DNA of 25,862 nt from a virus (taxonomy: Duplodnaviria; Heunggongvirae; Uroviricota; Caudoviricetes). Position 1 is the first letter of the stretch, and the number at the start of each line of letters is the position of its first letter. The stretch is taken from IMG/VR virus record IMGVR_UViG_2908572912_000005, positions 1-25,862 of that record; one strand, written 5' to 3'. The notes beneath the pieces were generated by a model that ran no database searches, had not been told where the DNA came from, and was given only the letters and a program-made list of their open reading frames with translations. Position numbers and translations under genes: made by a program. This document shows positions 1 through 16,946 of the stretch, in pieces.

Positions 1-396
1 CACAACATCCGAGGACAGCATCGTCCGCTGGCCCACAAAAGTCCGGAAAGTCATGGAAGGTCGTTGTTGGGAGGAGGTACAAATTCTCTCATGCAAAAAA
101 TACGTAAAATCGATAATAGCTGGAAATAATTCAATACATGCACTCTCGAAAGTGCATCAGCCAGCCGCAGCACGTTCCTGCATACAACGTGTCTGCGGCA
201 TATCACAAAACGATTACTCCATAACAGGGACAGCAGGCCACTCAATATCCGGTGCAGTTGATGTATCAACACGGTTCAGCAACACCCGATACTTTTTCCA
301 TGCGGCCAGTAACGCTTTCTCTTCCTCCGTTGCGATTTCCAGCTCAACAACAGTCTGAACGTACCGGGAACAGCCTCCTTCAGAGCTTGAAGGATA

Positions 397-3009
397 TCAA
401 TGTTCGCTTCCTGTTAACTGCCGGACAAGTGCAACCAGTTCGCTTACCTGATTTTCCAGAGTGCTGATCCGGGTGTCTGCTGTTGCCAGATTTTCACGTA
501 GCGTTGTGTTTTCCTCTTCCAGCGCGGTAACGCGATCATCTGTTTCACGGGCGACCTGAACAAGTAAACCCGTCACGGCGGCGTAGTCAACATTAAGATA
601 GCGCGTTTCTTCGCGTAGCTCGTTGCCGTCAACGGTCGGGCCTTGCAACTCTTCACCGTAATGGATGAATGAACCAACGGCCTCCGGGATGGCCTCTTCA
701 ACTTCCTGGGCTATAACCCCGGCGCAATGTGCCCCATTCTCCTTGAGCGTGTACGTGTATCCATTAATTTTGCGGATTGCGTCAGTCGCGTTATCGATAA
801 TCTCGATATTTTCTTTCAGTCTGCGGTCTGATGACTGATTCAGTGTGGTGCAGTTAACACTTCCGTTTACAGTAAGGTTTTGCCCGTCTGTTGTTTTTTG
901 CGCATAAAACAGATACGCAGCAGACGTGCCAACCTCAAAAACGTTTTGTCGAGTACTGGAACCCCACACCCTGACAGAAAACGGTAGTTCTGCATTACCT
1001 GAGTTCTGTAAAACAAAACGATTACCAGTCCCTGATTGCTTTGTAAGGGTTAAATCAACGGTTGAGTTAACCTCATTCCTGTTGATAGTGAGCGCCTGCG
1101 CTGTAGCCCCGTTAACAGCACCTGTTTTGAGTTGAACCGCGCCGTCATTACCATTTAACAGTATCTCAGCTCCGCTAAAGAAATTTTTTAGCGACAGCAT
1201 CTTACTTACGCCGACTGATGAACCCAACGCCCACGCGAGAGAATTACCGGTGCTATCAAACCCACGTACAAAGCAATCCATTTTGCTATAGTCTGACGTG
1301 CTTCCAAGGACATCAATCCGCCCTCCGCCAGATTTTATCGGGTTAGATGTGGTTAATGACCTGACAGCAATATCGGTAGATGAATTGAGATCGTCTACTG
1401 TTAGTAATTTCTTCCATTCCTGCGTCGTTCCATTTTCAATTGTTCTTCCCCAAAAACCGGAATTGCGGCCTCCGAACTGCACAGCATAATTTTTACTAAA
1501 TTGAACATGAATGCCGCCAAGAACCATAGAGCCTGCCGGGCCGTTTGTACTGCCTGCAATTGGTCTAAATTTGTCGACGTTATCAGTATGCTGAGCGTTC
1601 CAGTCATGACCTGTTAATGTTGCGATTCCTGAGTTAGCTGTAATTAACCCAGACGCTTTAAGATTCTGCACATCAATTCTGTCGTTTGCGAAATTATATG
1701 CAATTGCGTTACTAACGCTTCCGGCATCATCATAATCACGTTTCTGAATAAACCAGTCGCCAGCATTAGCAATGAGAGTATAAGTAGGCGTGTTAGCCGG
1801 GCGATCTGTTTCATTAAATCTTATTGCTGGGTTAGCGCTCCTTATTTGTAAAGGTTTTTCAACCGTTGATTTCAGTATCGCACTATCTACAATTAAATTA
1901 CCTTCTGAGTTAAGGTTTAGATATTTTGAAGCACCAGTTGAACCATCGTATGTAAACCTTATTGTTAATTGACCTGGCTCATTTGATAAAGTTTCAACAT
2001 ACATATCAGCACCAAGACGCACAGTGCTGTCAGTTGCTAACAGTCTTGTATGGAGAATTCCACTAGATGTGTATGTATTGGTCGAATCACTATATCTATC
2101 AAGAAATAGACTGTTAAGTTGAGGGCTGTTGTTCCTACCTAAGCCAAGATTCGTTCTGGCACCATCAACAGTTGCCGCATTAGTGCCTCCTTGTCCAATA
2201 GGTAATGGAACCCATGACGATCCGTTATGGCAACCCCACGATCCAGATGTTGACACCTGAAGTCGTGGCGCTGATGGTGAGTAATTCGAATAAACGTAAG
2301 TAGTCGATTCGCCTTCTTCAATTCTTTCTGTTAATACTATTTTTTTCCATACACTCCAACCTTGTGTGCTGGTATATATCCTTCTATAAAGAATTGATGA
2401 ATTGTTATATACAAAATAGCTCTGGATACAACCATCACTACCATTAGCACCAGTTCTTTGCACTAACAATGCACCAGCAAGCTGTATCGGGTAATTTAGT
2501 TCTGGCTTTGCGTTGGCAGACATTGGTTGGTAATAAAAACCGGCTGTAGTACCTTTTATATCGTTTAAGTTCGTATTCGCATCAAGGCCAGTTTTTGCTT
2601 CAAACATGACTTCAAGTTTAGAGCGCGCTGTACTTGCATCATTCGCCCCTGTGCCACCTTGCGCAACTGCGAGCGGTTGCCATCTACCAGCTTTAGGGTT
2701 AAATGCGCCCCACTGACCGTCAGCATCAACCTGTAAGTAACAGCCGTCCGCCTGAACGTCAGTAGATAAAATGATGGTTCTTGTGTCGCTTGAACGCTGA
2801 AATCGGATAACCTCATCTTTTCTTGCGTGGCGTGTCCATTGCGGGCCTATTGTCGGATTCCAGCGATAAGTATAAAGCGAGCGCGTAGCCCATCCCTGAA
2901 ATACACCTGTATACGCTGGTGTTCCATCTACCTGACTAATAAACCCCGTAAGACTGCTTTCACCGGATGCAATCGATGGAAAGCCTTTTGCATTACTCAT
3001 AATGCGCAT
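397..3009 (-). CDS. Phage tail fibre protein, N-terminally truncated remnant, with C-terminal intramolecular chaperone (peptidase S74-like) domain
   Basis: 870-aa ORF. C-terminus carries the SDRRLKENIEII motif typical of auto-cleaving tail-fibre/endosialidase chaperone domains. The same frame stays open upstream to ~3330 and encodes Ala/Ser/Thr-rich repeats (SETNAK...) typical of side-tail-fibre N-regions, but has no start codon there; first ATG is at 3009. Confidence 0.8.
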   Translation of the reverse strand: MRIMSNAKGFPSIASGESSLTGFISQVDGTPAYTGVFQGWATRSLYTYRWNPTIGPQWTRHARKDEVIRFQRSSDTRTIILSTDVQADGCYLQVDADGQWGAFNPKAGRWQPLAVAQGGTGANDASTARSKLEVMFEAKTGLDANTNLNDIKGTTAGFYYQPMSANAKPELNYPIQLAGALLVQRTGANGSDGCIQSYFVYNNSSILYRRIYTSTQGWSVWKKIVLTERIEEGESTTYVYSNYSPSAPRLQVSTSGSWGCHNGSSWVPLPIGQGGTNAATVDGARTNLGLGRNNSPQLNSLFLDRYSDSTNTYTSSGILHTRLLATDSTVRLGADMYVETLSNEPGQLTIRFTYDGSTGASKYLNLNSEGNLIVDSAILKSTVEKPLQIRSANPAIRFNETDRPANTPTYTLIANAGDWFIQKRDYDDAGSVSNAIAYNFANDRIDVQNLKASGLITANSGIATLTGHDWNAQHTDNVDKFRPIAGSTNGPAGSMVLGGIHVQFSKNYAVQFGGRNSGFWGRTIENGTTQEWKKLLTVDDLNSSTDIAVRSLTTSNPIKSGGGRIDVLGSTSDYSKMDCFVRGFDSTGNSLAWALGSSVGVSKMLSLKNFFSGAEILLNGNDGAVQLKTGAVNGATAQALTINRNEVNSTVDLTLTKQSGTGNRFVLQNSGNAELPFSVRVWGSSTRQNVFEVGTSAAYLFYAQKTTDGQNLTVNGSVNCTTLNQSSDRRLKENIEIIDNATDAIRKINGYTYTLKENGAHCAGVIAQEVEEAIPEAVGSFIHYGEELQGPTVDGNELREETRYLNVDYAAVTGLLVQVARETDDRVTALEEENTTLRENLATADTRISTLENQVSELVALVRQLTGSEH

Positions 3010-3092
3010 AAATCCGATATACCCTGATGGGTTGCCGGAAATATCAGGACAATCACGCGGGGCTGAGCCAAGACCGATATTATCGCCAACAA

Positions 3093-3725
3093 TTAATTGC
3101 GCCTGGTTGCGATAATTAAGTGCGTCCGCCGCAGATTTCGCCGCGTTTGTTTCACTGGATTTAGCATTAGTTTCGCTGGCTTTAGCGTTGGTTTCGCTGC
3201 TCTTTGCTGCTGCCTCGCTAGTTTTCGCGTTGGTTTCTGATTTTTTGGCTGCTGTCGCGGAGTTTGCCGATGCAGTTTGTGAGTCTGCTGCCGCCTGTGC
3301 GCTGTTATTGATTCGTAATACGCCAGCATTTCAGAAAGGATCGCATCCAGTTTCCTTATCGGGAAATAGGCCTGGTCATAGTTGCGATCCACCCGAAACT
3401 GGAACTCGTGATAATCATCATCGAGCTGAATGAAGTATTTACACCCGACCAGTTTTGCCAGGTCGAAACAGGCATTACGGGCGTAAAAAATTGAGCGGCG
3501 ATCACCAAAATTATCGGCTTCGTCAAAACGACTGGCAATATCGGCTTTGGAAAATACCAGCACCTGTTCACCAAATTCAGCCATGTACTGATGCCGTGTC
3601 TTATCTTCATCATCAACAACGATAAAAATTTTCCCGGTATAGCCAGCACGACGCAACGTCCGGTAAGTCAGAACTTTGTCCGGTCGCCCGTGAGTCAGAA
3701 TAAAGGCGCAAAAATCATCACGCAT
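3093..3725 (-). CDS. Hypothetical protein (possible DxD-type fold) whose 3' end runs out of frame into the tail-fibre repeat region; probable deletion-junction fusion
   Basis: ATG at 3725, two nt after the upstream stop, preceded by a GGAGGAGGAGG Shine-Dalgarno-like run. Protein-like sequence to about residue 140 (...LDDDYHEF...AILSEMLAYYESI), then a basic R/Q/K-rich tail that is the stf repeat region read in another frame. Confidence 0.45.
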   Translation of the reverse strand: MRDDFCAFILTHGRPDKVLTYRTLRRAGYTGKIFIVVDDEDKTRHQYMAEFGEQVLVFSKADIASRFDEADNFGDRRSIFYARNACFDLAKLVGCKYFIQLDDDYHEFQFRVDRNYDQAYFPIRKLDAILSEMLAYYESITAHRRQQTHKLHRQTPRQQPKNQKPTRKLARQQQRAAKPTLKPAKLMLNPVKQTRRNLRRTHLIIATRRN

Positions 3726-4512
3726 ATTCCTCCTCCTCCTCCCCGCCATGCATGATCTCCACCATGCGCTGCGTCATTCGGACAAATCCATTTTCAATAG
3801 CCTGCTGATAATCAATGATCACCAGCGCCGACTCCTCGTAAAGGCACTGAATTTCAGCGGGGGCATGAGCGTAATAGTCCGCAATTCTGCTGAAATTAAA
3901 CACTGTGTGACGTTCTGCCGCACACAGGAGGAATTTCTCAATATCAGGATCAAGGGACGCCGAACGTATCCGGCTGATCAGCTCCTGAGTTTTCGTATCG
4001 TCGTACAGTTCACTGATATCCGGTTTACCGCCCGACGGCTCATAAACAGGCGTATCAATTTTCGTCGTATACGGCTCCTCCTCATTTCCTGTACCGGGCA
4101 AAACATCCGTCAACAGTTCATCAATTTCTGTCGGGATGAAGCCTGTCAGGGAGACATCAAAATCAGCATTGATTAGGTCCGACAGCTCCATCCGCAACAG
4201 ATCTTCATCCCAACCAGCATTCATCGGCAGGCGATTATCTGCCAGGCGGTACGCCTTTTTCTGCTCATCCGTCAGGCCAGACAGAACAATGACCGGAACA
4301 GAATCCATTTTGAGCATTTCAGCCGCCATAACACGACCGTGACCCGCAATAATTTCGCCCTTTTCGTCAATCAGCACCGGATTAGTCCAGCCGAATTGCT
4401 TAATACTTTCTACCAGTTGTGCCACCTGCTCAGTACTGTGCGTCCTGGCATTGTGCGCATACGGTGACAATTCTTGTAATGGGCGATAGACTATCTTTAA
4501 TTTCTCGCTCAT
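3718..4512 (-). CDS. ParB-like nuclease domain protein
   Basis: 264-aa ORF; N-terminal segment (...PYAHNARTHS...IIAGHGRVMAAEML...) resembles the ParB N-terminal domain; acidic EEEEE C-terminus. Occupies the position before the packaging module in many phages. Confidence 0.7.
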   Translation of the reverse strand: MSEKLKIVYRPLQELSPYAHNARTHSTEQVAQLVESIKQFGWTNPVLIDEKGEIIAGHGRVMAAEMLKMDSVPVIVLSGLTDEQKKAYRLADNRLPMNAGWDEDLLRMELSDLINADFDVSLTGFIPTEIDELLTDVLPGTGNEEEPYTTKIDTPVYEPSGGKPDISELYDDTKTQELISRIRSASLDPDIEKFLLCAAERHTVFNFSRIADYYAHAPAEIQCLYEESALVIIDYQQAIENGFVRMTQRMVEIMHGGEEEEEYA

Positions 4513-4649
4513 ACAGCCTTGCTTTATGAATAAAACGCACCCCAGCAGCCAGTGCTACTGGGGGCGGAGGTGTTGCTGGTAAAGTTAGGTATTGGATCAA
4601 TGAGTTAGTCAACATAATATTAAACTCACAATTATAAATCAGCCATATA

Positions 4650-6107
4650 TTAGGAGCGCCAAAAAAAACCTGAAAACAATATAATAACAGGATAAATTTC
4701 AAGGCGACCAAGAATCATAGCTATGCACATTAAATATTTTGCAATGTCATTAAGCACTCCGAATGACGATGCAGTAGCCCCAAAACCTAATCCCATATTA
4801 TTAATACATGCAGCCACTGTTGCAAATGATGTAAGAAAATCATATCCCATACCATTTAACACCAGTATAAAAAACACCGTGAAGAGAGTATAAAGAAAAA
4901 AGAAACTCCATACAGACCTCATTACACGATCTGTAACTATCTTCCCTCCTACATTTACACTTAACAACGCTCTGGGATGAGAAAGTTGATTTATCTCGTG
5001 TTTGCTTTGTTTGAAAAGTATAAGAAATCGAAGTGACTTAATTCCACCACAGGTTGAACCGATACATCCCCCAAAGAAACTTGACAACAGCAAAAACACT
5101 ATCGTGTGCGTGGGCCAGTTTGCATAATCCTGCGTAGCTAAACCATTATCAGTGAGCATGGAGCTGGCAAGAAAAAACGAATGAATAAAACTTCCATGCA
5201 AGTCATACATACCTATATGCCAGACCTGGAAAGAGGTAACAATGATCACCCCTAAGGCTATTAACAGAAAGAAACGAAGTTCAATATCTCTGATTAAAGG
5301 TTTTATCGTTTTTCTGCTAATAACAATATACCAAAGAGTGAAGTTGAAAGCCGATAGCAGGGAAAAAAAACCAGCCACCAGCTCAACCAAATAGTTATTA
5401 AAATATCCGATACTCTCGCTATGAGTTGAGAAACCACCAAGCGAAACTGTGGAAATCCCGTGACAAATAGCATCAAACAAAGACATTCCTGCAAGTCTAT
5501 AACAGACAATACAAGCAATACCTAATAAAGAATAAGTTATCCACAGTGTCCGTGACGTATCGGCCAGGCGGGGAGTGAGTTTGTCATCCTTAAATGGCCC
5601 CGGCATTTCTGACTGATAAAGCTTTGCACCACCAATACCCAATAATGGCAATACAGCAACCGCCAGAACAATAACTCCTAAACCACCTATAAAATTTAAC
5701 TGTGACCGATAGTACAAATATGCCCGAGGTAATGAACTAACATCATCAATTACAGTTGCTCCTGTTGTTGTTATTCCAGAAACCCCTTCAAACAGAGCAT
5801 CAATGAACGTTAAATTAAGTTCTGAGTCAATCCATAAAGGGAATGCACTAATAACAGAAAACAAAATCCAAAACATTACAATTATAATAAACCCATCACG
5901 GGTACGTAATTGAATGCCAGATTTCTTAGTTGTATACCACGCTCCGCCACCAATGCAAAAAAATATAACGAAAGTTATAAAGAAAACGAACAGGCTTTTT
6001 TCTTTATAAAACAATGCTACAACCATTGGTGGCAACATTGAAAGACTATAGAGCCAAACCAGGAACCCACACATATGAGTAACAACTCTTACATGAGATG
6101 TATTCAT
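4650..6107 (-). CDS. trkG: Trk-system potassium uptake protein TrkG (prophage cargo)
   Basis: Polytopic membrane protein starting MNTSHVRVVTHMCGFLVWLYSL..., matching my recollection of Rac TrkG (485 aa from the ATG at 6107; the ORF track start at 6125 is a TTG). AT-rich flanks. Confidence 0.9.
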   Translation of the reverse strand: MNTSHVRVVTHMCGFLVWLYSLSMLPPMVVALFYKEKSLFVFFITFVIFFCIGGGAWYTTKKSGIQLRTRDGFIIIVMFWILFSVISAFPLWIDSELNLTFIDALFEGVSGITTTGATVIDDVSSLPRAYLYYRSQLNFIGGLGVIVLAVAVLPLLGIGGAKLYQSEMPGPFKDDKLTPRLADTSRTLWITYSLLGIACIVCYRLAGMSLFDAICHGISTVSLGGFSTHSESIGYFNNYLVELVAGFFSLLSAFNFTLWYIVISRKTIKPLIRDIELRFFLLIALGVIIVTSFQVWHIGMYDLHGSFIHSFFLASSMLTDNGLATQDYANWPTHTIVFLLLSSFFGGCIGSTCGGIKSLRFLILFKQSKHEINQLSHPRALLSVNVGGKIVTDRVMRSVWSFFFLYTLFTVFFILVLNGMGYDFLTSFATVAACINNMGLGFGATASSFGVLNDIAKYLMCIAMILGRLEIYPVIILFSGFFWRS

Positions 6108-6244
6108 ATCTAAATATTCTTTCAATTATAACCACCTTGCTGCAATATTATGATTATACTGTATAAAATTTAACTCCTCTTAGATCTTACTTCACTGTTC
6201 CTTATGAAACAATCATCAAAATGAATCATATTGTAGTTAAGATT

Positions 6245-6709
6245 TTACTTTAAACACTGCTCGGTTATGTATTGCTGAGCACCTTCAAGTTGGGCCTGCA
6301 TCATTACCAGTCGTTCCCGGAGGGTGAAATAATCCCGTTCAGCGGTGTCTGCCAGTCGGGGGGAGGCTGCATTATCCACGCCGGAGGCGGTGGTGGCTTC
6401 ACGCACTGACTGACAGACTGCTTTGATGTGCAACCGACGACGACCAGCGGCAACATCATCACGCAGAGCATCATTTTCAGCTTTCGCATCAGCTAACTCC
6501 TTCGTGTATTTTGCATCGAGCGCAGCAACATCACGCTGACGCATCTGCATCTCAGTAATTGCCGCGTTCGCCAGCTTCAGTTCTCTGGCATTTTTGTCGC
6601 GCTGTTCTTTGTAGGCGATGGCGTTATCACGGTAATGATTAACACCCCATGACAGGCAGACGACGATGCAGATAACCAGAGCGGAGATAATCGCGGTTAC
6701 TCTGCTCAT
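6245..6709 (-). CDS. Rz: i-spanin Rz
   Basis: 154 aa with N-terminal TM segment and coiled-coil-like body; near-identical to lambda Rz as I recall it; start overlaps the endolysin stop. Confidence 0.9.
6304..6489 (-). CDS. Rz1: o-spanin Rz1 (outer-membrane lipoprotein), embedded out of frame inside Rz
   Basis: 61-aa [23 protein letters not shown]... with lipobox Cys and PPPPP tract, entirely within the Rz gene in another frame; lambda-type embedded architecture. Confidence 0.85.
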
Positions 6710-7182
6710 ACCTCAATCTCTCTGACCGTTCCGCCAGCTTCTTTGAATTTTGCAATCAGACTGTCAGCCTTATGCTCGAACTGACCATAACCAGCGCCCG
6801 GCAGTGAGGCCCATATATTGCTGCAACGGTCGATAGCCTGACGGATATCACCGCGATCAATCATCGGCAAAGCGCCACGCTCTTTAATCTGCTGCAGCGC
6901 TACAGCATCCTGACTTTCTGGAGAAAAATCTTTCAGGCCAAGTTGCTTGCGGTAGGCATCCCACCAGCGTGAAAGAAGCTGGTAACGTCCAGCGGCTGTT
7001 GATTTGAGTTTCGGATTTAGCGTGACAAGTTTGCGGGGGTGATCGGAGTAATCAGTGAACAGTTCGCCACCGACAATAACATCATAACCGTGATTTCTGG
7101 TTTTCTGCCGTCCGTTATCTGTTCCTTCTGACCATGCCACCATATCAAGGAAAGCTTTACGCTGGGAATTAAGTGTCTGCAT
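6706..7182 (-). CDS. R: Endolysin, lambda R-like lytic transglycosylase
   Basis: 158 aa; ...[33 protein letters not shown]... matches lambda R as I recall it; AAGGAG Shine-Dalgarno upstream. Confidence 0.9.
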
Positions 7183-7185
7183 TAA

Positions 7186-7527
7186 TTACTCCTTATGGGC
7201 ACCGAACTTGTTACCGATGACCCTCATTGCCGCACCACGAATAGCATCAACACCAATCAGCCCCACCCCACCACCAATGGCAACAGAAAGTGATTTAGGC
7301 CATCCGACATACTCAAGCGCGGATGCAAAGGTCAGCGTCAGAGCACCACAAAGCAGAATCTCAAGCGTTTTTCGTTTCCAGCCGCCGCCACCGCCAAAAT
7401 AGGCAATGCGCAAACCAGCCATAATAATTGACATAACCACTGCACCCAGCGGCGTATCTCCACGCCACCAACTTTGTAAGAGTTCCAGTAAGTCAGGCCA
7501 GGAATGAGGGGCATTGTGCATTTTCAT
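7186..7527 (-). CDS. S: Holin (class I, three predicted TM segments) with dual-start motif
   Basis: Position immediately upstream of the endolysin; three hydrophobic segments; N-terminus M-K-M-H with two in-frame ATGs (7527, 7521) behind a GGAGGTGA Shine-Dalgarno, reminiscent of the lambda S107/S105 dual start. The ORF track start at 7536 is a GTG. Confidence 0.75.
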   Translation of the reverse strand: MKMHNAPHSWPDLLELLQSWWRGDTPLGAVVMSIIMAGLRIAYFGGGGGWKRKTLEILLCGALTLTFASALEYVGWPKSLSVAIGGGVGLIGVDAIRGAAMRVIGNKFGAHKE

Positions 7528-7616
7528 AAGCCTCACCTCCGAGAGTTCGGATGGTGCTAAGTGTAAGATTCAGGCTCTCAGGCTTGCTAACAAGAAGTCG
7601 AGGATGTTTCCGGAGC

Positions 7617-7744: not shown

Positions 7745-7906
7745 ATGTCTGAAAAAAACAAGCCACAAGATGAAAATAAACCTCAGCAACCCGTGGCACC
7801 AAAACCAACTCCAACACAAAGTACTACAGACTTTGCTACACGTCGTGTTTTTGTTGGAGATTCTGCCGACTCAGTCATTGAACATATAAAAAAACAGCCG
7901 AGATAA
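7745..7906 (+). CDS. Small hydrophilic hypothetical protein (53 aa), convergent with the neighbouring membrane-protein gene
   Basis: ATG at 7745 preceded by AGAGGA Shine-Dalgarno at 5-nt spacing; low-complexity Pro/Gln/Lys-rich N-terminus; 3' end overlaps the opposite-strand gene by ~30 nt. Confidence 0.35.
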   Translation: MSEKNKPQDENKPQQPVAPKPTPTQSTTDFATRRVFVGDSADSVIEHIKKQPR

Positions 7907-8444
7907 ACATCGCCGCTACCGGAGCAAGGATGGTATACATCCTTGCTTTATCGAGACTCGTGCGGATTTTCTCATTTTCCAACAGTAACTCTCTTGCTGT
8001 ATCACTCAAGTCAACAAGGCGATACCTTCGTATAAGCGGCAATAACTTATCAGGTCCTAAATATCCTGCATCAGCGAATATTTTAAAGCTCGAGGGCTCC
8101 ATATCCTTATATTTTTCATGATATAGATGATCAGGAGGGGCATTGATCAGGCCCCTAACCTTCACAGATAAACCAGTACATACCAAGTAAATGGCGCACC
8201 ATGTCCATAGTAATGTAAATGTGGTAATTCCGGCGGTGAGAAAATCGAAATTAGTTTTCTGTGTCAGCAATAAAAAAGATGAACCAATTCCAACAATCTG
8301 AATGTTCAGAAGTTTGTATCCATTCTCAACATTGGTTTTGTTAGAAAGATGAATCTCTCGTATCGTCTCTTCCCCTTGTTTTTCAAGATAATCGACGAGC
8401 TCATCATCTACTCCTAAAAAATAATCTTTAGGTAGTTCTCTCAT
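7875..8444 (-). CDS. Hypothetical membrane protein in the Q-to-holin moron position
   Basis: 189-aa ORF with strong GGAGGTGA Shine-Dalgarno; about three hydrophobic segments (two central, one C-terminal); AT-rich; flanked by terminator-like hairpins on both sides. Confidence 0.6.
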   Translation of the reverse strand: MRELPKDYFLGVDDELVDYLEKQGEETIREIHLSNKTNVENGYKLLNIQIVGIGSSFLLLTQKTNFDFLTAGITTFTLLWTWCAIYLVCTGLSVKVRGLINAPPDHLYHEKYKDMEPSSFKIFADAGYLGPDKLLPLIRRYRLVDLSDTARELLLENEKIRTSLDKARMYTILAPVAAMFISAVFLYVQ

Positions 8445-8665: not shown

Positions 8666-9208
8666 TCAAGCTATTTTTTGAGCAAATGATTCTCGCATGG
8701 GAGTATATAGGGCATACTCAGCAACAGCCAACCAATTAGCAATTCGCTTTTCGCATGTGCTAAAACACCACTCAGGATGTGCATCATTTAGCAATTCAGC
8801 CATTTTGCGCTTAGTCATCCCCCGTCCTTCATACCGTTGCCGGAGGACACTAATCAATCCAGGATGCTCTGCCAGCACCTCACTTATGACTCTATCAATA
8901 CATAACGCCTCTGCATCAGTACAATGCGCCAGCCAGGTCTTTTGCTTGCCATTGATCATCTCTCGCAAAAACGCTTCCAGCTCAGGTTTCTCTATTCCCG
9001 CTTTTTTCATCCTGCGCAGGGCTTCATTGACGGCTGTTTTCGTCAATTTTTTGGATGCCAGCAACTGGTTAAACATATTTCCCGTCTTACCGCCGCCAAT
9101 ATACGACCAGCGCCCCCACATGCGCAGTTTTCCCTGAATCCAGACACTTTCCAGCGTGGTGAGACGAAGGTGTTCCCCGCTTTTGCCTGTATTTGTTGGG
9201 TAAATCAT
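8666..9208 (-). CDS. Putative late-gene antiterminator (Q-like)
   Basis: 180-aa ORF from the ATG at 9208 with GGAGAAAGGAAGG upstream; sits immediately upstream of a terminator and the lysis cassette; start overlaps the upstream stop in an ATGA junction. Assignment is mainly positional; the longer ORF track form begins further upstream. Confidence 0.55.
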   Translation of the reverse strand: MIYPTNTGKSGEHLRLTTLESVWIQGKLRMWGRWSYIGGGKTGNMFNQLLASKKLTKTAVNEALRRMKKAGIEKPELEAFLREMINGKQKTWLAHCTDAEALCIDRVISEVLAEHPGLISVLRQRYEGRGMTKRKMAELLNDAHPEWCFSTCEKRIANWLAVAEYALYTPMRESFAQKIA

Positions 9209-9495
9209 AAATAACCTTCCTTTCTCCAGATTTCTTGTGTGCGAAAAACACCTTCTGCATGCATCAGGCGTAATTCTTCTTTGGTGTAATCGCTGGTTTT
9301 TACCCGCCCGTCGATTAAATCGTGGCATGAGCTACAGGCAATCGCTGCCTGCATATCGTGTGGTTTTGTCGCTGTTCCGCACGTCCCCGCCAGCCTGTAA
9401 TGCGCCAGCACAGAGGTTTCGGGATTGTGATTGCAGTAGCCAGGGATTCTGATCTGGCACATCTGGCCTTTAGCCGCTTTACGTAAATTCACCAT
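9205..9495 (-). CDS. YbcO-like (DUF1364) putative nuclease with Cys-rich metal-binding motifs
   Basis: 96 aa; ...CQIRIPGYCNHNPETSVLAHYRLAGTCGTATKPHD...IACSSCHD... resembles E. coli prophage YbcO as I recall it. Confidence 0.7.
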   Translation of the reverse strand: MVNLRKAAKGQMCQIRIPGYCNHNPETSVLAHYRLAGTCGTATKPHDMQAAIACSSCHDLIDGRVKTSDYTKEELRLMHAEGVFRTQEIWRKEGYL

Positions 9496-10093
9496 TACGC
9501 AAACTCCAGTAGTTGTGCGGCCACATTTTCAACTTCCTCCTGAGAGGAGAATTTACGGAACAGAATCCAGTTCCACAGCACATTCAGAACAGATTTATAA
9601 ACCTGCTGAAACTCGGTTTCGTCCATATTCGCAAACGCGATGGATTTCGCCCTGCGCCCACGGCTACCGTCCGGATAAATATGCTCGGTGTAAAATCCGG
9701 CCTGAATGGTTACCCACTCGCGGAAAGCCTCAAACGACTTTAGCAATGCCGTATCCCGAGTTCTGCGTGTCGCAACTGTATTTAGATATTGCTCTGCGGC
9801 ATCACTCAGGGCTGGTGTGTGTTCCCGACCAACTGATTCGCACAAGTAATCCACGAAACCAGACAGCAGTTCTCGTTCGCGAGGTGTGATCGCCCCACCG
9901 ACCGGAGTCCAGTAATCGAATCCCAGTTGCAGGAGTTTGAAAAACGCTTGTGGAATGCGTAGTTACGCACACGCTTAAAGTCTGCGTGTATCCACTCACC
10001 TATTTTGATTTGATGCAGAAAATCGCAACTCTCCGGCGTCGCCGGGAGAAGTAAACCAGAAGAGGTTTGTTTGACCAGTTGTATATGCGCCAT
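9495..10093 (-). pseudogene. Nin-region phage gene split into two overlapping reading frames by a frameshift at an A5/T5 homopolymer
   Basis: The frame from the ATG at 10093 (MAHIQLVKQTSS...HKRF) stops at 9806; a second frame is open from ~9962 to 9495 (...FFKLLQLGFDYWTPVGG...LLEFA). Both read through the AAAAA run at 9939-9943; one nt of indel there would give a single ~200-aa protein. Confidence 0.5.
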
Positions 10094-10368
10094 TTCTCAA
10101 TCTCTCGATGGCGCAGTGCAGCAGATGCCAGTTGTTCAGGCTGACGTATAAAGTATAAATAAACTGGTTCCAGTGTAAAGCCCCCACATTGATGGAATAA
10201 AAATCAAACAATAGATTGCTGGGATAAAAATACAACGCTTATTATTAAAAGCGGTTAGACAAATTAAATTTTAATGTTATGCAAATCTGCCAGATTAGCA
10301 TAATATCTCATTTGAAAACCGCTGAAATAACAATCTTATCAGGATTAATCATATTAAGGTGAGTAAAT

Positions 10369-10455
10369 ATGGAAAACAACAAATCTGCACATTACGCTCC
10401 TTTTTTATCTATAATACTTTTTGTATTTTGTTGTGTATGGGCGGTATTTTTATAA
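10369..10455 (+). CDS. Candidate small hydrophobic peptide (28 aa)
   Basis: ATG at 10369 preceded by AAGGTGAG Shine-Dalgarno; product MENNKSAHYAPFLSIILFVFCCVWAVFL has one predicted TM segment; ends 15 nt before a strong terminator hairpin. Confidence 0.35.
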   Translation: MENNKSAHYAPFLSIILFVFCCVWAVFL

Positions 10456-10470
10456 AACACACCCACAAAT

Positions 10471-10500
10471 AAATCAAACCCGCTACAGCGGGTTTGATTT
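10471..10500. terminator. Bidirectional intrinsic terminator (13-bp perfect stem, 4-nt loop)
   Basis: AAATCAAACCCGC-TACA-GCGGGTTTGATTT; GC-rich stem core with U-rich distal arm on either strand; lies between the convergent S8 peptidase gene and the small peptide ORF. Confidence 0.6.
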
Positions 10501-10509
10501 ATATAGTTG

Positions 10510-12774
10510 TTATACGGAAACTGGCACACGAGCAGGCAATGGATAGTGAGCCCAGTTATTAGCATTTAAAGCTCTTACGCCATCAGCATAAACTTGTGTG
10601 TTTCCATCTAATGATTTTAAAGTTACTACAATAGTTACAGGTAAAGGCTCCATTAAGGCCGGTTCATTCGCTCTCAACGTTGTTTTAGCCTGAAGAGCCC
10701 AGTTACCCGAAGTAATTCCTTTATTAAATGCCTTGCGATGAATTTTTACTGGTGACCACTTTCCACCATGCTCAATTTGAGCTCTCTCATATCCAGATTG
10801 ACCGTTTTCTCCTTCCATAGGCACTTTTCCTTTTATAGTATTATTCTCAATTAAGCCAAAACTTAGCTCTACGTTCGCGCGAACATATTCACTGCCGGCA
10901 TTAGGGTTCAGTGGTGGTGCATATGCAGCAGTAATTACAATCTCACCTTTAAATTTTCCATTTTGAATAAGTGCCGATGGTATGGGATAGTTTTCCTTTC
11001 TCCACCTCATCCCAGGAACCAAGAATGTTTGGAAAATCAGAGTAAACCTATCATCACTATCATATAAGGTCTCAATAACTTCATTAGGAATTCCCGCTCC
11101 CAAATAGCGTCTTTCACTTGGCGAGTAATCAGGAGAAGATAATTGAGCGGAATGAATTAATAATGCTTTAATCAATGATGGTGAAACATTAAAGTCTGAA
11201 TTAGTGGCTATTCTCTGCCATGTATGCGCAGCTAAACTTGCCACAATTGGAGCAGCAAAACTAGTACCAAAATTAGAGCAAAGCCTATTATCTGGCCCTA
11301 CGACCTTTAAACTGCTTGCTCCTACATTCCAAGGTCTATGAACCCCACCGCCAGCATGGATTATATCTGGCTTTGGAGTAAATACAGGCCCAGGGCCACG
11401 ACGAGTATATGGTGTCGGTGTTCCAATTTCACTTAAAGCATCATTAGCTTCCATATGAGAAACTGAACCAACTGTTAGTGCTCGGACTGACTCTCCAGGA
11501 GAGGAAATTAAATCAGCACCTCCAAGCGGTTCAGGATTTGGCCATGTACGTATAGGTTCATCTACATAATTACCTGCAGCAACTACAAACAAAATACCAA
11601 ATTTATCGCTGAGCCGATCTAACTCCATCGCAAAATCACTAAACGTCTGCTCATTGCATGGTCCGCCTCCCAAAGACAAATTCCAGACTTTTATATCTGG
11701 TCTTTTATTTACAGCATCTGCTAGCCTCAGAATTAAATCTGATATATAAGATCCATTTTCATCTAAGGCACAAACATCATGGATTTTAGATTTTGTATCA
11801 GGAATCCATGGATGATTGTCATTTAAAAAATGAGCGCCTGATATCAATGAAGACACCATAGTCCCATGTTCATAACTCGTATCAGGAGGAATTACGTATG
11901 TTTCCCTACTCACTACCCAAGGAGTAATTGTTGCCGCGATGGGGCTTACCCCAGTGTCAAATACAGCAACAATGGGTAATTCTTCTGATGGTACGGGAAA
12001 GCTATTTGTTTCAATGCCAACAGAATCACTTACACTAACCGGGAATGCTGAATATTTTGGTTCTGGAATTAACGTTCTTATACCCGGGTAATCAATGAGA
12101 ATGTCTAATATATATCTATCATTTGGGGATAAATCCATTATCCTTAATAAGGGAAGACCACATTTTTGTCTAATCTCATCATATTTAACTCCGTGTTGTT
12201 CTAATATAGAAATAACGTTTTCATAGTTGTTGTAAGTTGCATCTTCACCTGTGTACTCAAATAGTCGTACAAGGATGTTTGATGATTCAAACAAACCATC
12301 AGTGCCTCCTGGAACCTTCCTATTCTCATCCCAAGGTTCAATGCGCTCAATCGCGCTTAGATTAGCCAAAATCGCTTTAATATTCCGATGTAAAATGACT
12401 GACTCTAATACGTCAAAACAGCCGGCATGAGCAGCAACCAACATTTCATCTATTTTGGCATGACCGGCATTTTGCAATCCAGCCTCTTGAGCAATTTTGT
12501 TCGGCCTATGCGTTTTGGCTATTCCCTGGTCTCTTAATTTGAAAACCAAAGTACCCAAGCTTCCAGGGTACTCTGAAAGTTTGGATTCTAAATAATGTTT
12601 ACTGGTTGTTAAATTTCTTACTAGCCCTTGTCTATATTCGGCTGTTACATCAACCAATACCTTTGCCCCACCGCCAGCGTTTACTATTGCACCCAAGTCA
12701 CTACTGGAAAAAGGGATTCTTAACATTGGGTTTGTAACTTTTGCGTTACTAAACTGTGTACCCCTTCTGCTCAT
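10510..12774 (-). CDS. Subtilisin-like serine peptidase (S8 family) with large N- and C-terminal extensions
   Basis: 754 aa; catalytic triad motifs in canonical D-H-S order: VAVFDTGV (Asp), YEHGTMVSS (His), GTSFAAPIVA (Ser), plus AAGN oxyanion-region motif. No obvious signal peptide. Start overlaps the upstream ATPase gene by 26 nt. Confidence 0.9.
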   Translation of the reverse strand: MSRRGTQFSNAKVTNPMLRIPFSSSDLGAIVNAGGGAKVLVDVTAEYRQGLVRNLTTSKHYLESKLSEYPGSLGTLVFKLRDQGIAKTHRPNKIAQEAGLQNAGHAKIDEMLVAAHAGCFDVLESVILHRNIKAILANLSAIERIEPWDENRKVPGGTDGLFESSNILVRLFEYTGEDATYNNYENVISILEQHGVKYDEIRQKCGLPLLRIMDLSPNDRYILDILIDYPGIRTLIPEPKYSAFPVSVSDSVGIETNSFPVPSEELPIVAVFDTGVSPIAATITPWVVSRETYVIPPDTSYEHGTMVSSLISGAHFLNDNHPWIPDTKSKIHDVCALDENGSYISDLILRLADAVNKRPDIKVWNLSLGGGPCNEQTFSDFAMELDRLSDKFGILFVVAAGNYVDEPIRTWPNPEPLGGADLISSPGESVRALTVGSVSHMEANDALSEIGTPTPYTRRGPGPVFTPKPDIIHAGGGVHRPWNVGASSLKVVGPDNRLCSNFGTSFAAPIVASLAAHTWQRIATNSDFNVSPSLIKALLIHSAQLSSPDYSPSERRYLGAGIPNEVIETLYDSDDRFTLIFQTFLVPGMRWRKENYPIPSALIQNGKFKGEIVITAAYAPPLNPNAGSEYVRANVELSFGLIENNTIKGKVPMEGENGQSGYERAQIEHGGKWSPVKIHRKAFNKGITSGNWALQAKTTLRANEPALMEPLPVTIVVTLKSLDGNTQVYADGVRALNANNWAHYPLPARVPVSV

Positions 12775-13903
12775 ATGCTCCTGACTCCTTCAGAATGTTT
12801 GAAATTACTCTTGATGTAAGTTTGTACAAATTAGCAAGAACTCTGATAGAAAATAATTTTTTATCTTTAGAACGTAACCAACGAATTTCATCTTCGTAAG
12901 TGCTTAAATTTACACCTTCCATAAGCGATTGAGCAAGATACAAACGCCTATACAATTTATGGTGATTTATCACACTTGCACCTTCAATAACTGCATCCCT
13001 ACGTGCATCCAAGCTCACCTGTTCAATTATTGCTCCGGATAATCCTTCCGATTTTCTTGATAAATCACTTAAATCTAGATCGCTACATATCATATTCTTT
13101 AAACGATTTTTCCAAATTAACTCTCTCTGATGTATGTCAGGCAGAGGCATTGGAATTCTGAAGCTAAATCGCCTCCAGATTGCAGGATCCAGAAGTTGCT
13201 CATGGTTAGTTGAGGCAATAATTACCGTATCCTCTGATGCCGCATCCATATTCTGCAATAGTGAAATGACAACTCGCTGAAGCTCACCTATATCTCTCTC
13301 ATTACCTCTTGCTCCAGCTAAAGCATCAAATTCGTCTAAAAAAAGCACTGATGGCCTCTGCATTACATAATCGAAAACCTGTCTAAGATTTTTGCTGGTT
13401 TGTCCCAATAAACTACTAATCAAAGTATCGCAACGCACTGTAAGAAGTGGAAAATCTAAGCGGGTAGCGATGTACTTAGATAACATAGTCTTACCTGTTC
13501 CTGGCTTTCCATACACGAGCATACGACTCGGCAATGCTGCATCAGCTTTAACAAACTCATCATAACGTTGAACATTAGTGATAAACTCTTCAACACGGGT
13601 ACTGATTGCTGCAGGCAGAAAAATCTCTGAACTGTCTAATTTAGGATAACTGACATCAACAGTGTTGAGTCGACTATCAATATCTACCGGTAATGAGCCC
13701 AGAGATATCCCACCTCCAGCCCTTTGAGCTCCTGCCAACGCCTGGGGAGCTCTAAGCAACCTTTCTCTTATCATTCTGGCTTGCTTGACCTCCCCTTTTT
13801 GTTCGAGCTTATCTGCCAGCAACCCAGCATAATTACTAGCCATCGAAGCATTTGCCTTTGTTGCACCTTCAATGATTTTTAACACTTCTGATAAATAATC
13901 CAT
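12749..13903 (-). CDS. AAA+ family ATPase
   Basis: 384 aa; Walker A GKPGTGKT, Walker B VLFLDEFDAL, sensor-1 region IIASTNHEQLLDPAIWRRF; ~130-aa N-terminal extension; GGGAG ribosome-binding site. Confidence 0.9.
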   Translation of the reverse strand: MDYLSEVLKIIEGATKANASMASNYAGLLADKLEQKGEVKQARMIRERLLRAPQALAGAQRAGGGISLGSLPVDIDSRLNTVDVSYPKLDSSEIFLPAAISTRVEEFITNVQRYDEFVKADAALPSRMLVYGKPGTGKTMLSKYIATRLDFPLLTVRCDTLISSLLGQTSKNLRQVFDYVMQRPSVLFLDEFDALAGARGNERDIGELQRVVISLLQNMDAASEDTVIIASTNHEQLLDPAIWRRFSFRIPMPLPDIHQRELIWKNRLKNMICSDLDLSDLSRKSEGLSGAIIEQVSLDARRDAVIEGASVINHHKLYRRLYLAQSLMEGVNLSTYEDEIRWLRSKDKKLFSIRVLANLYKLTSRVISNILKESGAYEQKGYTV

Positions 13904-14096
13904 TCAACACTCCCACAACAAAAAGCCACAGCAATCAAAAAATGAGCACGCAGAATCAAAATGCTCTCTAATCGTAACGCATTTTGAGATTTTTGATACG
14001 TTTTTTTGGGATTATGTAACGCCAAATGGTCATTTTGTGTCAGAAAAATAAATCTTAGTACCGAGAATATGTAGCTTCCATCCTTCATCGTTCTAT

Positions 14097-14528
14097 TCAT
14101 CCCTGATCTCCAAGCCTCTCTCGAAAACCATTCTGATAAAACGCCAGCACACGCTGCATAACTTCGCTCTTCCGGCACTCGCGACAGATTATGTTTAGGC
14201 GACTGTCGTAGCGACGTATTTCTCCGTCAGGTAATGACCAGATAAGGTCCGGATCAACCACAACCGGTTTCTTCAGCTTTGCCCTAGATAGTTTTTTGCG
14301 GGCATTTTGCCAGTCCTTACGAGCCTGTTCAGACGGGAATAACCCGTAACCAGAGTTGTATACATCGCCACTGGCAACCAGCTCTCTGGCGAGAACGCTC
14401 ATCAGATATCTTGTCGCACCTGTCTTGGCTTCCAGTTGCCGTAACGTCTCGCGCCCACTCCGGCGTACTAGTTCAACAACCTGCCCTTTAATTTTTTCCC
14501 GCTCTTCTTGTGTAAATACTTTTGCCAT
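14097..14528 (-). CDS. Hypothetical protein (143 aa), basic, possible DNA-binding fold
   Basis: ATG at 14528 with GGAGG Shine-Dalgarno at 5-nt spacing (the ORF track start at 14543 is a TTG); no motif I can assign confidently. Confidence 0.55.
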   Translation of the reverse strand: MAKVFTQEEREKIKGQVVELVRRSGRETLRQLEAKTGATRYLMSVLARELVASGDVYNSGYGLFPSEQARKDWQNARKKLSRAKLKKPVVVDPDLIWSLPDGEIRRYDSRLNIICRECRKSEVMQRVLAFYQNGFRERLGDQG

Positions 14529-14543
14529 AAGCGCCTCCGGCAA

Positions 14544-15305
14544 TCACTTTTCCGATACAACACGGCGGGAAGAATCAGTAATCTGTCGAACAATATCCCG
14601 GTGCTTGTTCAGCTCCCGCAGCGCGGCGCAGACTCGCTCCCACTTCTGGACATGATTTTTCGCCCGACGCAGTTCACGGTTTGCCATATGCAGCGATGGT
14701 AAAATCAGGTTATCCGCTTGCGTTTCAGTAAACGATGGCAACGACTGCACAATGTCCGCCACAGTTTCTGTTTTAATATCTTCCTGTGTTGCAGCTTCCT
14801 GTACTGGTAACGCAACACCGGCTAGCTGAGGAAAGGCTTTACCATCTGTTTCCGCTACCGATGCAGCTTTCGGCTCTGCTGGTAAATTACCGCCCGGCAT
14901 GCAGTAACGAAATTTACCGTTCTGATTAACGCGAATCAGACGAGCTTTGCTGATTGCCATTGCCAGCGTTGAAGCCACTTTGCGGGATGTGGTACCGAAC
15001 AACGTAGCCAGTTCATCCGCAGTTAGTGGACCACGTTGTTCAATCGTCGCAGTTAAATCGCTCTCTGAAATTTTCGCGACTGTTGCCGTGGTAGTTTCTT
15101 CCGGCAGTTCTGCCGGCGCTGGCTGTTCCTGCTGAACGTTGTTATCAGCCACACGCCAGGTGTACGCGCTTTTATCAACGAAACCAGCCTTTTTCAGTTC
15201 CCATAGTTCGTTCAGCACTTCTTCACGGCTGATATCAAGTCGCGCAGCAAGTTCTATGGATGTGGCTTTTCCCATTGCTTTCAGTGTGTCAAAAACAGTC
15301 TCCAT
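14544..15305 (-). CDS. Hypothetical phage protein, YdaW/DUF1627-like by position and N-terminal winged-helix-like segment
   Basis: ATG at 15305 ([43 protein letters not shown]...), GGAGA ribosome-binding site; directly downstream of the DnaC-like gene as in Rac-type prophages. Confidence 0.55.
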
Positions 15306-15327
15306 TAAATTTTTCTCCCGGTAAAAA

Positions 15328-16074
15328 TTACTTCGCAATTCCTGGCTGGACGACATTCGGACGCCAGCTCTCCCAGTTAAAATTCACCCATCGCCCGCCG
15401 TTCATGGTCATGCGATCCATAATCCTCTCGCCGAGCAATGTTTTCATGGCCTCATAATTCAGGTTTGTCAGCATCCCCACGCTGCGCATCGACGCTGTCC
15501 GGCGATCAACAATCTGGTGCAGCACCACCTGCTCGTTTTTTGTCTCGCGCTGAATGCCAATTTCATCAAGAACCAGCAGATCCACTTGGCACAGTTCCCG
15601 CAAAAATTTTTCGCCTGATTGCCCGTCGTCATAGCTGGCGTGTAGGGCACTCATGACATCAGCCACGGTAACCACAATCACTGTCTGGCCATCTTTCAGC
15701 AGGCGATTCCCGATAGCCGCCGCCAGATGGTTTTTTCCGGTACCAGGTTTTCCGCTGAACGCAAAATTTGTACACCCGGTCATCAGTTCATCAGCGATGG
15801 ATTTCGCCTGACTCAACGCGTATCGCTGCCCTTCGTTCTGCACCTGGTAATTCGAAAACGAGCATTTGCGGTGCAATGGCTGGATGCCAGAGCGATTCAG
15901 AATTTTTTCCACCCGCAACTGACGATTCTGACGGTTGATCTCCTCACAACGTTTCTGGCCTTCGGAAAGTTGCCACTCGCGCCACTCCGCTACCGTTTTG
16001 AATGGGGCGGTTACATGTGGCGGGGCCAGTCTGCGGATACGTTCAAGAATGCCGCCTGCCGCAATATTTTTCAT
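15328..16074 (-). CDS. ydaV: DnaC/IstB-like helicase-loader ATPase (YdaV-like)
   Basis: 248 aa; Walker [16 protein letters not shown], Walker B LLVLDEIG; replication-module position. Confidence 0.85.
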
Positions 16075-16080
16075 GGTCAG

Positions 16081-16869
16081 TTACCCCCTGAAGCCTGGCG
16101 GGATCGCACTATCCGGTAACGAGACGGTGTTAACCTGTCGGAGTAACGTCTCAGGTCGAACACCTTTTGGCGCGAACAAGCCCTGGTATTCATTGGCGAT
16201 GCTGTGTCGAATCACCTGCTCAGGTGAAAAACCCTGCTGGCGGAATTTTTCCAGCTCCCGTATCGCCCCGTTAGCGCCCTGCTCCGTTCGAATCGGTTTT
16301 CGCAATGCCTGCCTGAACTGAACCCACTCATGCCAGAGTGTTTCCGGCAACCAGTCAGGCAGCTCGATAGCCTCCGGTTCGAATTTTTTAGACGCTCGTT
16401 TTTGGCGAGGGGGATTTAGGGGGAGATAAGTATTTATATCTTCCTCTTTCTCTTCCTCTGGTAACGCTTTTTGATCCGTTTTTGTAACGCTGGCAGCGTT
16501 ACCTTTTCGTTTCAGTTCTCGTATTTTTGTTACTCTCTCGTTTGTAACCGCCCGTTTTTTAGAGCTTTTCCCGTTATGGCGCTCAAAGTTAGGAAGCGAC
16601 AACACACCATTAGTTTCGACCAGCCATCCAACCTGAATTAACGCATCAGCAAAACCAGCCATAAAAGTGATGCGATCTATTGCACTTTTTGTAACGCCGC
16701 GAGCGTTACACTCTGCGTTACCGTCTATCATTTGTTGATCCGCCCATGCCCAGAAGCGAATGACTTTCCCTAATGCGGCATCTGGATCAATATTCAGAAT
16801 CTCAGCAAGCCTGAATATTTCCGGCTTATCCGGCGTAATAACTTCGAGCTTTATCCAGTTTGAAGCCAT
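16081..16869 (-). CDS. ydaU: Phage replication protein (YdaU-like, with DnaT-like C-terminal region)
   Basis: 262 aa; immediately upstream of the DnaC-like gene; contains and is preceded by dyad-symmetric repeats (see the repeat feature at 16483..16933). Confidence 0.7.
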   Translation of the reverse strand: MASNWIKLEVITPDKPEIFRLAEILNIDPDAALGKVIRFWAWADQQMIDGNAECNARGVTKSAIDRITFMAGFADALIQVGWLVETNGVLSLPNFERHNGKSSKKRAVTNERVTKIRELKRKGNAASVTKTDQKALPEEEKEEDINTYLPLNPPRQKRASKKFEPEAIELPDWLPETLWHEWVQFRQALRKPIRTEQGANGAIRELEKFRQQGFSPEQVIRHSIANEYQGLFAPKGVRPETLLRQVNTVSLPDSAIPPGFRG

Positions 16870-16933
16870 TTGTTTTCACCTTGTAACGCTCGCAGCGTTA
16901 CATTTAACTGATACCGAACAAAACAGTTCGGTA
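16483..16933. repeat. Three copies of a dyad-symmetric element TGTAACGC-N5-GCGTTACA plus a second 8-bp-arm palindrome; candidate origin iterons or operator sites
   Basis: Copies at 16483-16502 (7-bp arms), 16690-16710 (8-bp arms, perfect) and 16882-16902 (8-9-bp arms), about 200 bp apart, two inside the ydaU-like coding sequence and one just upstream of its start; extra half-sites at 16461-16467 and 16715-16722; separate palindrome TACCGAAC-N6-GTTCGGTA at 16912-16933. Confidence 0.5.
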
Positions 16934-16946
16934 CGATTAATTTCAA

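Follow-up and report, generated by a model that had tools for sequence, protein, structure and literature searches.

The DNA analysed here, the 25,862-nt IMG/VR record IMGVR_UViG_2908572912_000005 (hereafter the window, meaning the whole stretch), can be assigned on its gene content to a Rac-type lambdoid prophage of Escherichia coli, of which about 26 kb are left after reduction. Our best explanation, to which we give a probability of about 0.9, is that this prophage was rendered permanently defective by one 22-kb deletion, which would have joined codon 140 of a gene of the TAGT (TET-associated glycosyltransferase) family to stf, the side tail fibre gene, at its codon 283, and that the fibre-side end of this deletion is a recurrent breakpoint. 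The locus alone is ordinary: it documents how one Rac-type prophage turned defective, another case of prophage decay by deletion (as known from Rac, DLP12 and e14 of K-12) and of microhomology-mediated illegitimate recombination. Its TAGT and Stf genes are truncated members of known families, and the element as a whole is of a familiar kind. Of greater interest than the single scar is the recurrent breakpoint.

Deletion Junction and Reading Frames

An initial annotation, made from the sequence alone, had proposed a deletion scar at about 3300–3335 between an upstream gene and an N-terminally truncated tail fibre gene. Alignment to intact Rac-like prophages and to full-length stf genes confirmed the scar and narrowed it to a trinucleotide at 3306–3308. 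When the window is aligned with both of its parents, namely the Rac-site prophage of AR_0077 (L001) and the intact fibre locus L002, identity with the left parent continues through ...GAATCAATA, with its last position at window 3306, and identity with the L002 fibre starts at ATAACAGCGC, window 3308. The crossover is ATA, with zero inserted bases, as in a junction of microhomology-mediated illegitimate recombination. Intact Rac-like prophages share 99.7% identity with the left flank (4600 to 3299), and the intact L002 stf gene shares 99.9% with the right flank (3308 to 2400, 909 nt).

Megablast queries running from 4600 to 2700 and from 3400 to 2400 were compared with 5,426 complete E. coli genomes. 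The first query matched 2,909 genomes, none of which covered 80% of it, and the best matches (99.7%) all end at window 3299. The second query found intact genes annotated as "prophage tail fiber N-terminal domain-containing" at 99–99.9% identity, with match onset at 3316–3307. Both flanks match thousands of E. coli genomes at 99.7–99.9% identity; because each does so up to the junction and not beyond it, the pattern cannot be attributed to chance.

The upstream open reading frame (ORF) stops at 3093–3095 on the minus strand. It is 218 aa long from ATG 3749, where the ORF listing begins it, and 210 aa long from ATG 3725, the start annotated in relatives, which has a strong Shine-Dalgarno sequence, GGAGGAGGAGG, directly upstream. 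All of the first 140 residues (140/140) are identical to those of the 310-aa protein WP_001204033 of AR_0077, and the last 70 residues (TAHRRQQTHKLHRQTPRQQPKNQKPTRK...) are the Ala/Ser fibre repeats read one base out of register. The ORF is thus a fusion of the kind that the initial annotation had described, a real protein for about 140 codons followed by an R/Q/K-rich translation of the fibre repeats. Pfam assigns the window ORF to TAGT (PF20691) with E = 1e-21 over profile positions 4–124 of 205, and the intact 310-aa relative with E = 5.5e-35 over positions 4–205; by this profile match, the window gene is a truncated member of the family.

On the other side of the junction, the fibre frame upstream of 3009 reads ...NNSAQAAADSQTASANSATAAKKSETNAKTSEAAAKSSETNAK... 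and is open to about 3330. It contains SETNAK-type repeats and has no ATG, GTG or TTG before 3009, in accordance with the first reading of the sequence, and it can be reached from the upstream ORF only via a −1 shift. Since the two frames are out of register, the outcome would be a piece of the glycosyltransferase ending in 70 nonsense residues, and a fibre remnant without a start before ATG 3009. The ORF at 3093–3725 is not a conserved gene, and the fibre does not natively begin at 3009: the intact upstream gene encodes 310 aa, and fibre genes of this kind begin, with a phage_tail_N domain, about 282 codons before the part retained in the window.

The intact L002 fibre (1160 aa) has phage_tail_N (PF08400) at residues 1–134 and Peptidase_S74 near the C-terminus, as assigned by Pfam. 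In the window, Stf-type Ala/Ser-rich SETNA repeats are followed by the distal part of the fibre. Peptidase_S74 at residues 727–778 is the sole Pfam domain of the 870-aa ORF that starts at ATG 3009, so that the C-terminal S74 intramolecular chaperone is kept; phage_tail_N, the tail-attachment domain, was found by Pfam neither in this ORF nor in the open frame back to 3330. A truncated fibre without the N-terminal domain is unable to attach to the tail. Upstream of ATG 3009 there is a weak Shine-Dalgarno-like GGA at a distance of 4 nt, and a consensus scan for promoters near this ATG gave two promoter-like sites in 2 kb versus 3.3 in shuffled sequences, none above chance. PGAP calls the same 870-aa ORF in strain KD602. 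Production of a truncated fibre from ATG 3009 is possible though unsupported, and the remnant would be at best weakly expressed.

Extent of the Deletion

In AR_0077 (NZ_CP026755) the region from the lysis genes to stf is present in one block, and the two breakpoints lie 22,049 bp apart. The gene order there is trkG, ynaK, the TAGT-family gene, a 69-aa ORF, terS, terL, portal, minor head protein, scaffold-like protein, P22-type capsid, tail genes, ydaY, tape measure, L, K, I, J and lom, followed by stf, a tfa remnant and sitDCBA. The head and tail block is gone from the window, and the initial annotation had likewise taken the scar to have made the prophage defective. The ORF inventory agrees with the initial annotation that only trkG, the ParB-like gene (ynaK) and one more ORF stand between the lysis cassette and the fibre; no terminase, portal, capsid or tail gene was found at 3093–6245 or elsewhere in the window.

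The two parental sequences, the exact join, the missing genes and the relation of the frames are visible in the alignments; from them we infer that the event was an intrachromosomal deletion. Illegitimate recombination at the 3-nt microhomology ATA would have removed the rest of the glycosyltransferase gene, the 69-aa ORF, both terminase subunits, portal, head, tail tube and tape measure, as well as L/K/I/J, lom and the portion of stf that serves virion attachment. The prophage thus lost its genes for packaging and for the virion, along with a DNA-glycosyltransferase-like gene, while cargo (trkG, iteAS, recET) and the fibre remnant were kept. Such a remnant can act as recombination stock for incoming phages.

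Uniqueness of the Join

None of the 5,426 complete E. coli genomes has the exact junction, nor do 57 IMG/VR loci in which the right flank is present or 50 metagenome loci, and the protein collection has no entry for the exact product of the 218-aa fusion. In the metagenome scan, the left flank was canonical in 49 of the 49 loci where it could be read, and no new junction types appeared.

That the junction occurs in no other public sequence searched would also be expected if it were an assembly chimera of the Rac region with another prophage's multicopy fibre gene, the more so as stf sequences, with up to six per genome, are a classic cause of misassembly. We consider this extremely unlikely, as the flanks have no more than 3 nt in common at the join, much less than the k-mer of any assembler. 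In addition, window 1–396, which lies 3' of the fibre, continues like the Rac-site prophage of AR_0077, beside sitD, and analogous junctions at the same fibre nucleotide are present in finished long-read genomes.

The stf allele of the window is 99.9% identical to the DLP12-site fibre (L002) and 91% identical to the Rac-site fibre of AR_0077, the closest relative of the left flank. As the allele is nearest to a DLP12-site fibre, the ancestral prophage must have been a mosaic that is not represented in the collections. The same difference, together with the mosaicism of the fibre modules downstream of the junction among loci, could suggest that a linear fragment with the distal fibre module was imported by homology-facilitated illegitimate recombination, and that no internal deletion took place. 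This appears very unlikely to us: ordinary homologous exchange of stf accounts for the allele difference with no need for import at the junction, and in the one ancestor and descendant pair, the ST410 strains YD786 and WCHEC020031, the change is a clean internal deletion with flanks that are 99.995–100% identical.

Recurrent Breakpoint in stf

The fibre dinucleotide TA at window 3306–3307 is the breakpoint in at least five independent rearrangements, including that of the window (L003, L046, L048, L061, L063, L348). The loci were collected by the 30-mer directly right of the junction, and such scans detect only junctions at or upstream of the pattern start. Most of these loci have the canonical left flank ...GAATGCGGATAA; every non-canonical left flank diverges at the same TA. 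Taken together with the complete genomes, they yield the following independent events.

The first event is that of the window, in which the TAGT gene is joined out of frame at the microhomology ATA; the other events follow the same pattern, with 2–6 nt shared at the crossover. In the second, nu1/nohD is joined out of frame at CTGATA/ACAGCG (the slash marks the crossover) in KD602, WP4-S18-ESBL-08 and EC6563 (L061, L348). The third is an in-frame gpJ'::fibre fusion found in L046 and in the ST410 reference strain YD786, and the fourth is an in-frame rep'::fibre fusion found in many ST410 genomes. In the fifth, the TAA stop of a 339-aa moron ORF is joined to the fibre (L048 and seven complete genomes), and because intact phages carry this ORF on the strand opposite to the late genes, the joint is of the inversion type.

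Compared with YD786, the fourth event has cleanly deleted 7.4 kb between two copies of the hexamer GGGTAA, and the right-hand copy straddles the junction of the third event. The ST410 deletion therefore joined two junctions that already existed, and the site was still active after its left flank had been replaced. The partner on the left has a history of its own, since the wHTH (winged helix-turn-helix) replication-like gene of the oweE type is recurrently broken at CAGGGT(AA), codon 78, in three configurations: it is fused to terminase in ymfN of the K-12 prophage e14 (L351:171–404), to unrelated sequence in YD786 (L280:20143–20391) and to the fibre in ST410 WCHEC020031 (L003:5768–6001), with the intact form at L333:11329–12270.

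A sixth case was observed in an ST410 prophage at the lambda attachment site (bioA/ybhB; WCHEC020031, L347:4534–5747), which reads nohD' CTGATAA/AGCGCAGG. Here the nohD left site of the second event is joined to a point 2.16 kb further along the fibre, where TAA(C)AGCGCA repeats part of the hotspot sequence. This case may descend from a nohD'-fibre junction, or it may have arisen directly from an intact prophage. Two other ideas about the nohD'-fibre junction were discarded: ACN002 is not an inversion of an ancestor with this junction, as nohD is full length there, and the DLP12 prophage of K-12 does not carry it, since the deletion in DLP12 is another one, from A' to tfa.

Other deletions end elsewhere in the 5' region of stf, at −518, −72 and +19 nt from the hotspot (L049, L040 and L062, respectively), so that about five of eight junctions share one dinucleotide within about 0.9 kb. 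According to a rough estimate, the chance of four further matches within the same 6 nt is about 1e-7, a value that applies to scans which see junctions at or upstream of the pattern start only. The IMG/VR locus L049 carries an in-frame fusion of the N-terminus of a lambda-type terL at ...MVEEVARNAS; in L040, also from IMG/VR, the joint lies 72 nt upstream of the hotspot, and its partner is a region downstream of the lysis genes. When the 149 residues that follow the junction were used as a protein query for in-frame fusions, only 14 short partial proteins were returned, and nearly all matches of an 18-mer scan of genome contigs were chance matches in unrelated phyla.

The genes found 3' of the fibre and the tfa remnant differ among these prophages (L350:23067–23657; L003:9164–9937 and L063:4136–4909): there is a Pin-like serine recombinase gene in ACN002 (L350), sitDCBA at the Rac site, an LEM-3-like GIY-YIG nuclease gene in ST410 and a SAM methyltransferase gene in DLP12-site prophages. 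From these differences it follows that the region 3' of the fibre is itself a cargo hotspot.

The recurrence calls for caution in annotation, because chimeric proteins named "gpJ", "terminase small subunit" or "tail fiber domain" at this position are deletion fusion artefacts.

Position of the Breakpoint and Possible Mechanism

The hotspot sequence at stf codon 282/283 is ...ACGAATGC GGATA/ACAGCGCACAGG.... The N-terminal third of Stf is conserved and the distal part is variable, and the TA lies 4–5 nt inside the variable module, beside the main mosaic boundary of lambdoid stf genes. Of the 58 records in the phage collection that match the canonical fibre, 40 (lambda among them) lose their homology with it at query positions 290–296, and the TA is at 299–300. 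The lambda sequence is ...GACGAATGC/CAGGTCATC, versus ...GACGAATGC/GGATAACAGCGC in the fibre type studied here, and homology with lambda-type stf stops after ...ACGAATGC, 3 nt before the TA. All microhomologies (ATA, GATA, TA, TAA, and GGGTAA in the J' form) fall within the first six nucleotides past this mosaic boundary.

These data allow us to propose, tentatively and at somewhat less than even odds, that the TA of stf codon 282/283 acts in lambdoid prophages of E. coli as a hotspot of illegitimate recombination that is precise to the nucleotide and can be re-used, and at which ectopic intermediates stall at homology/heterology boundaries. According to this model, ectopic recombination intermediates between paralogous segments of co-resident prophages would stall or break where homology gives way to heterology, and the resulting end would be joined elsewhere through a microhomology of 2–6 nt. 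Old deletion junctions would count as such boundaries as well and could be re-used as breakpoints, for example in ST410. The combination of one fixed end with arbitrary partners favours a recurrent DNA end or stall, followed by microhomology joining, over recognition of pseudo-sites by a recombinase; a fixed end or stall at the mosaic boundary that is then joined to an arbitrary partner is the most likely course of events.

Alternatively, the fibre-side end could be set by a site-specific enzyme, such as a recombinase acting on a cognate site and on pseudo-sites, a transposase acting at a cryptic end starting ACAGCGCACAGG, or a sequence-specific nuclease; the deletion in the window would then be among its products. 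Five independent junctions at the same TA, one of them an inversion-type joint and one a re-use after replacement of the left flank, are what such an enzyme would produce; the palindromic TA permits both deletion and inversion, the crossover carries a weak dyad that was kept in the later re-used gpJ'::fibre junction, and a Pin-like recombinase gene stands beside the fibre in ACN002. Crossover sites of the Hin/Gin/Cin/Pin family are 26-bp imperfect palindromes with AAACC/GGTTT half-site cores and a central 2-bp crossover. However, the 12 bp on each side of the TA (GACGAATGCGGA and ACAGCGCACAGG) appear to lack these cores when compared by eye with the consensus, and, unlike typical pseudo-sites, the partner sites do not resemble the fibre site over any greater length. 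Nor is there a common neighbouring enzyme gene, as sitD, the GIY-YIG gene, the methyltransferase gene or the recombinase gene is found there depending on the locus, and microhomologies of a variable length of 2–6 nt are more typical of end joining. Thus, we regard a site-specific enzyme as unlikely. By inspection, the sites of lambda cosN, the dif/XerC arm, the DnaA box, EcoKI, EcoP15I, the integron core site and loxP do not appear to fit the position of the crossover either.

The dyad is TGCG-N8-CGCA, centred on the crossover (TGCGGATA/ACAGCGCA) at L002:6005–6020, the ancestral equivalent of window ~3299–3314, where it has been destroyed. It could be a chance occurrence, which is expected at about 1 in 256 per position. 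A similarity of the partner sites seen by eye (TA-N-C-N-G-N-G-C) was rejected against an empirical null consisting of all TA sites (hundreds) in the same loci, with p = 0.02–0.48 per event and a combined value of 0.067. DNA secondary structure as the cause of the hotspot was rejected as well, on the hairpin scores given next.

Several observations weigh against our explanation of the scar and its recurrent breakpoint. The z-scores for a hairpin at the site range from −0.6 to +0.7 (both strands, intact and junction forms), and the only structure is a 4-bp stem TGCG/CGCA with the TA in its loop. Inverted repeats in stf are limited to chance-level ones of 13 nt, the repeats being otherwise the known direct ones of the SETNA type, and a known recombinase site was not found at the fibre TA. 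Reciprocal junctions, in which the canonical left flank is kept and joined to a new right partner, occur in 0 of 103 loci. As for the window itself, its exact junction is seen in one assembly, and its ancestor is deduced from relatives, with an stf allele that differs from that of the AR_0077 Rac fibre to the extent given above.

If the model of boundary stalling is true, stf offers a defined boundary site at which one can ask whether random illegitimate recombination or events directed by homology boundaries act in phage mosaics and prophage decay, and homologous and illegitimate recombination would be linked in the formation of both.

Comparison with Known Systems

The Rac prophage of K-12, with the gene order intR-recET-...-trkG-ynaK-ydaY'-tmpR'-lomR'-stfR-tfaR-pinR, belongs to the same family as the window and has the same neighbourhood (intR, recE, recT, trkG, ynaK, with sit/uspF/ompN beyond the fibre in AR_0077). 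Both are defective through loss of morphogenetic genes and have retained a side tail fibre gene. Unlike the window, K-12 Rac keeps remnants of ydaY, the tape-measure gene and lom, and a full stfR, whereas in the window everything from the glycosyltransferase gene through stf codon 282 is gone, the fibre is of the S74-chaperone type without a functional tfa, and the iteAS pair is present.

Short-homology-dependent illegitimate recombination in E. coli has been studied through the formation of lambda-bio transducing phages. As in our loci, unrelated sequences are joined there at 2–6 nt and hotspots recur; in contrast to the joins of the lambda-bio type, one partner is fixed here to the nucleotide at a mosaic boundary and the others are seemingly arbitrary. 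Deletions made by recombinases with one fixed endpoint (lambda Int at att and secondary sites, Cin at quasi-cix sites) likewise have an invariant and a variable end, and our loci show both deletions and an inversion. Unlike those of lambda Int and Cin, the junctions studied here have no recognisable recombinase site, with the Hin-family sites compared by eye, and no pseudo-site similarity.

The mosaic joints of tail fibre genes (lambda stf, P2 H, Mu S, P1 S) resemble the hotspot in that the breakpoint is near the end of the shared N-terminal homology. The exchange in those genes is credited to homologous recombination or to invertases, whereas the joins described here are non-homologous and lead to terminase, J, replication and cargo genes. 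In particular, exchange of stf between lambda and the defective Rac and Qin prophages has been ascribed to relaxed homologous recombination (PMC3945230). A recurrent, nucleotide-precise breakpoint at a mosaic boundary was not found in the full-text literature searched, which is weak evidence of novelty.

The fibre remnant can be compared with StfE2 of the cryptic prophage e14, a chimeric fibre protein driven by PinQ that blocks adsorption of T2 (PMC12529663). Both derive from a fibre gene of a defective prophage that makes no virion to carry them. StfE2 arises through programmed inversion and has a demonstrated function, whereas the remnant of the window is known from its sequence alone.

Other Features of the Window

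The hallmarks of Rac are present in the window, namely intR, the recE/recT pair, and trkG with ynaK located between the lysis and late genes. Over 16.9 kb, the window is 99.4% identical to regions of APEC E14033 that are annotated intR, recE, recT, iteA and iteS. The coordinates of the features are given in Table 1.

Table 1. Coordinates of features in the window and the basis of their assignment.
Feature	Position	Strand	Basis
Tail fibre assembly gene remnant, 3' of the fibre	209–340 (approximate)	minus	AR_0077 annotation mapped via H56 alignment
stf remnant, codon 283 to stop of the 1160-aa fibre	397–3308	minus	L002 stf alignment and Pfam
Longest start-bearing ORF in the fibre remnant, 870 aa, ATG 3009	397–3009	minus	ORF inventory; PGAP in KD602
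Out-of-frame tail of the fused ORF, 70 R/Q/K-rich codons and stop	3093–3305	minus	Translations
Deletion junction, 3-nt microhomology ATA (minus strand) common to both parents	3306–3308	minus	Three-way alignment
5' 140 codons of the TAGT-family glycosyltransferase gene, ATG 3725	3306–3725	minus	Residue identity and Pfam PF20691
ynaK, ParB/Srx N-terminal domain protein, intact in the window	3718–4512	minus	Pfam ParB_N and relatives' annotation
trkG potassium transporter, Rac cargo gene	4650–6125	minus	ORF and relative's annotation
Lysis cassette: holin-like protein, lysozyme, Rz with embedded Rz1	6245–7536	minus	ORFs and relative's annotation
Early/immunity half of a Rac-type prophage	9000–25862		Similarity to APEC E14033
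iteS/iteA defence pair	10510–13903	minus	Pfam S8 peptidase and AAA ATPase; names from near-identical genomes
recE/recT	20476–23878		Names annotated in APEC E14033
intR	24627–25862		Name annotated in APEC E14033

In intact Rac-like phages, ynaK (ParB/Srx) and the TAGT-family gene are paired directly upstream of the terminase genes (window 3093–4512; L001:6089–7808), and this pairing suggests a module associated with DNA modification or packaging. The TAGT family is characterised by association with a TET/JBP dioxygenase and by glycosylation of modified DNA bases; in the window, the gene next to the TAGT-family gene is the ParB/Srx-domain gene. The ynaK gene is a pseudogene in AR_0077, and in at least 12 genomes (H7–H18) an IS3-family element lies within it.

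In the defence pair, the gene for the S8 subtilase (754 aa) overlaps that for the AAA ATPase (384 aa), and near-identical genomes annotate the two as the anti-phage system iteS/iteA. A 189-aa ORF at 7875–8444 on the minus strand, between a Q-like gene and the holin gene, has hydrophobic stretches and no Pfam match, and may be a moron.

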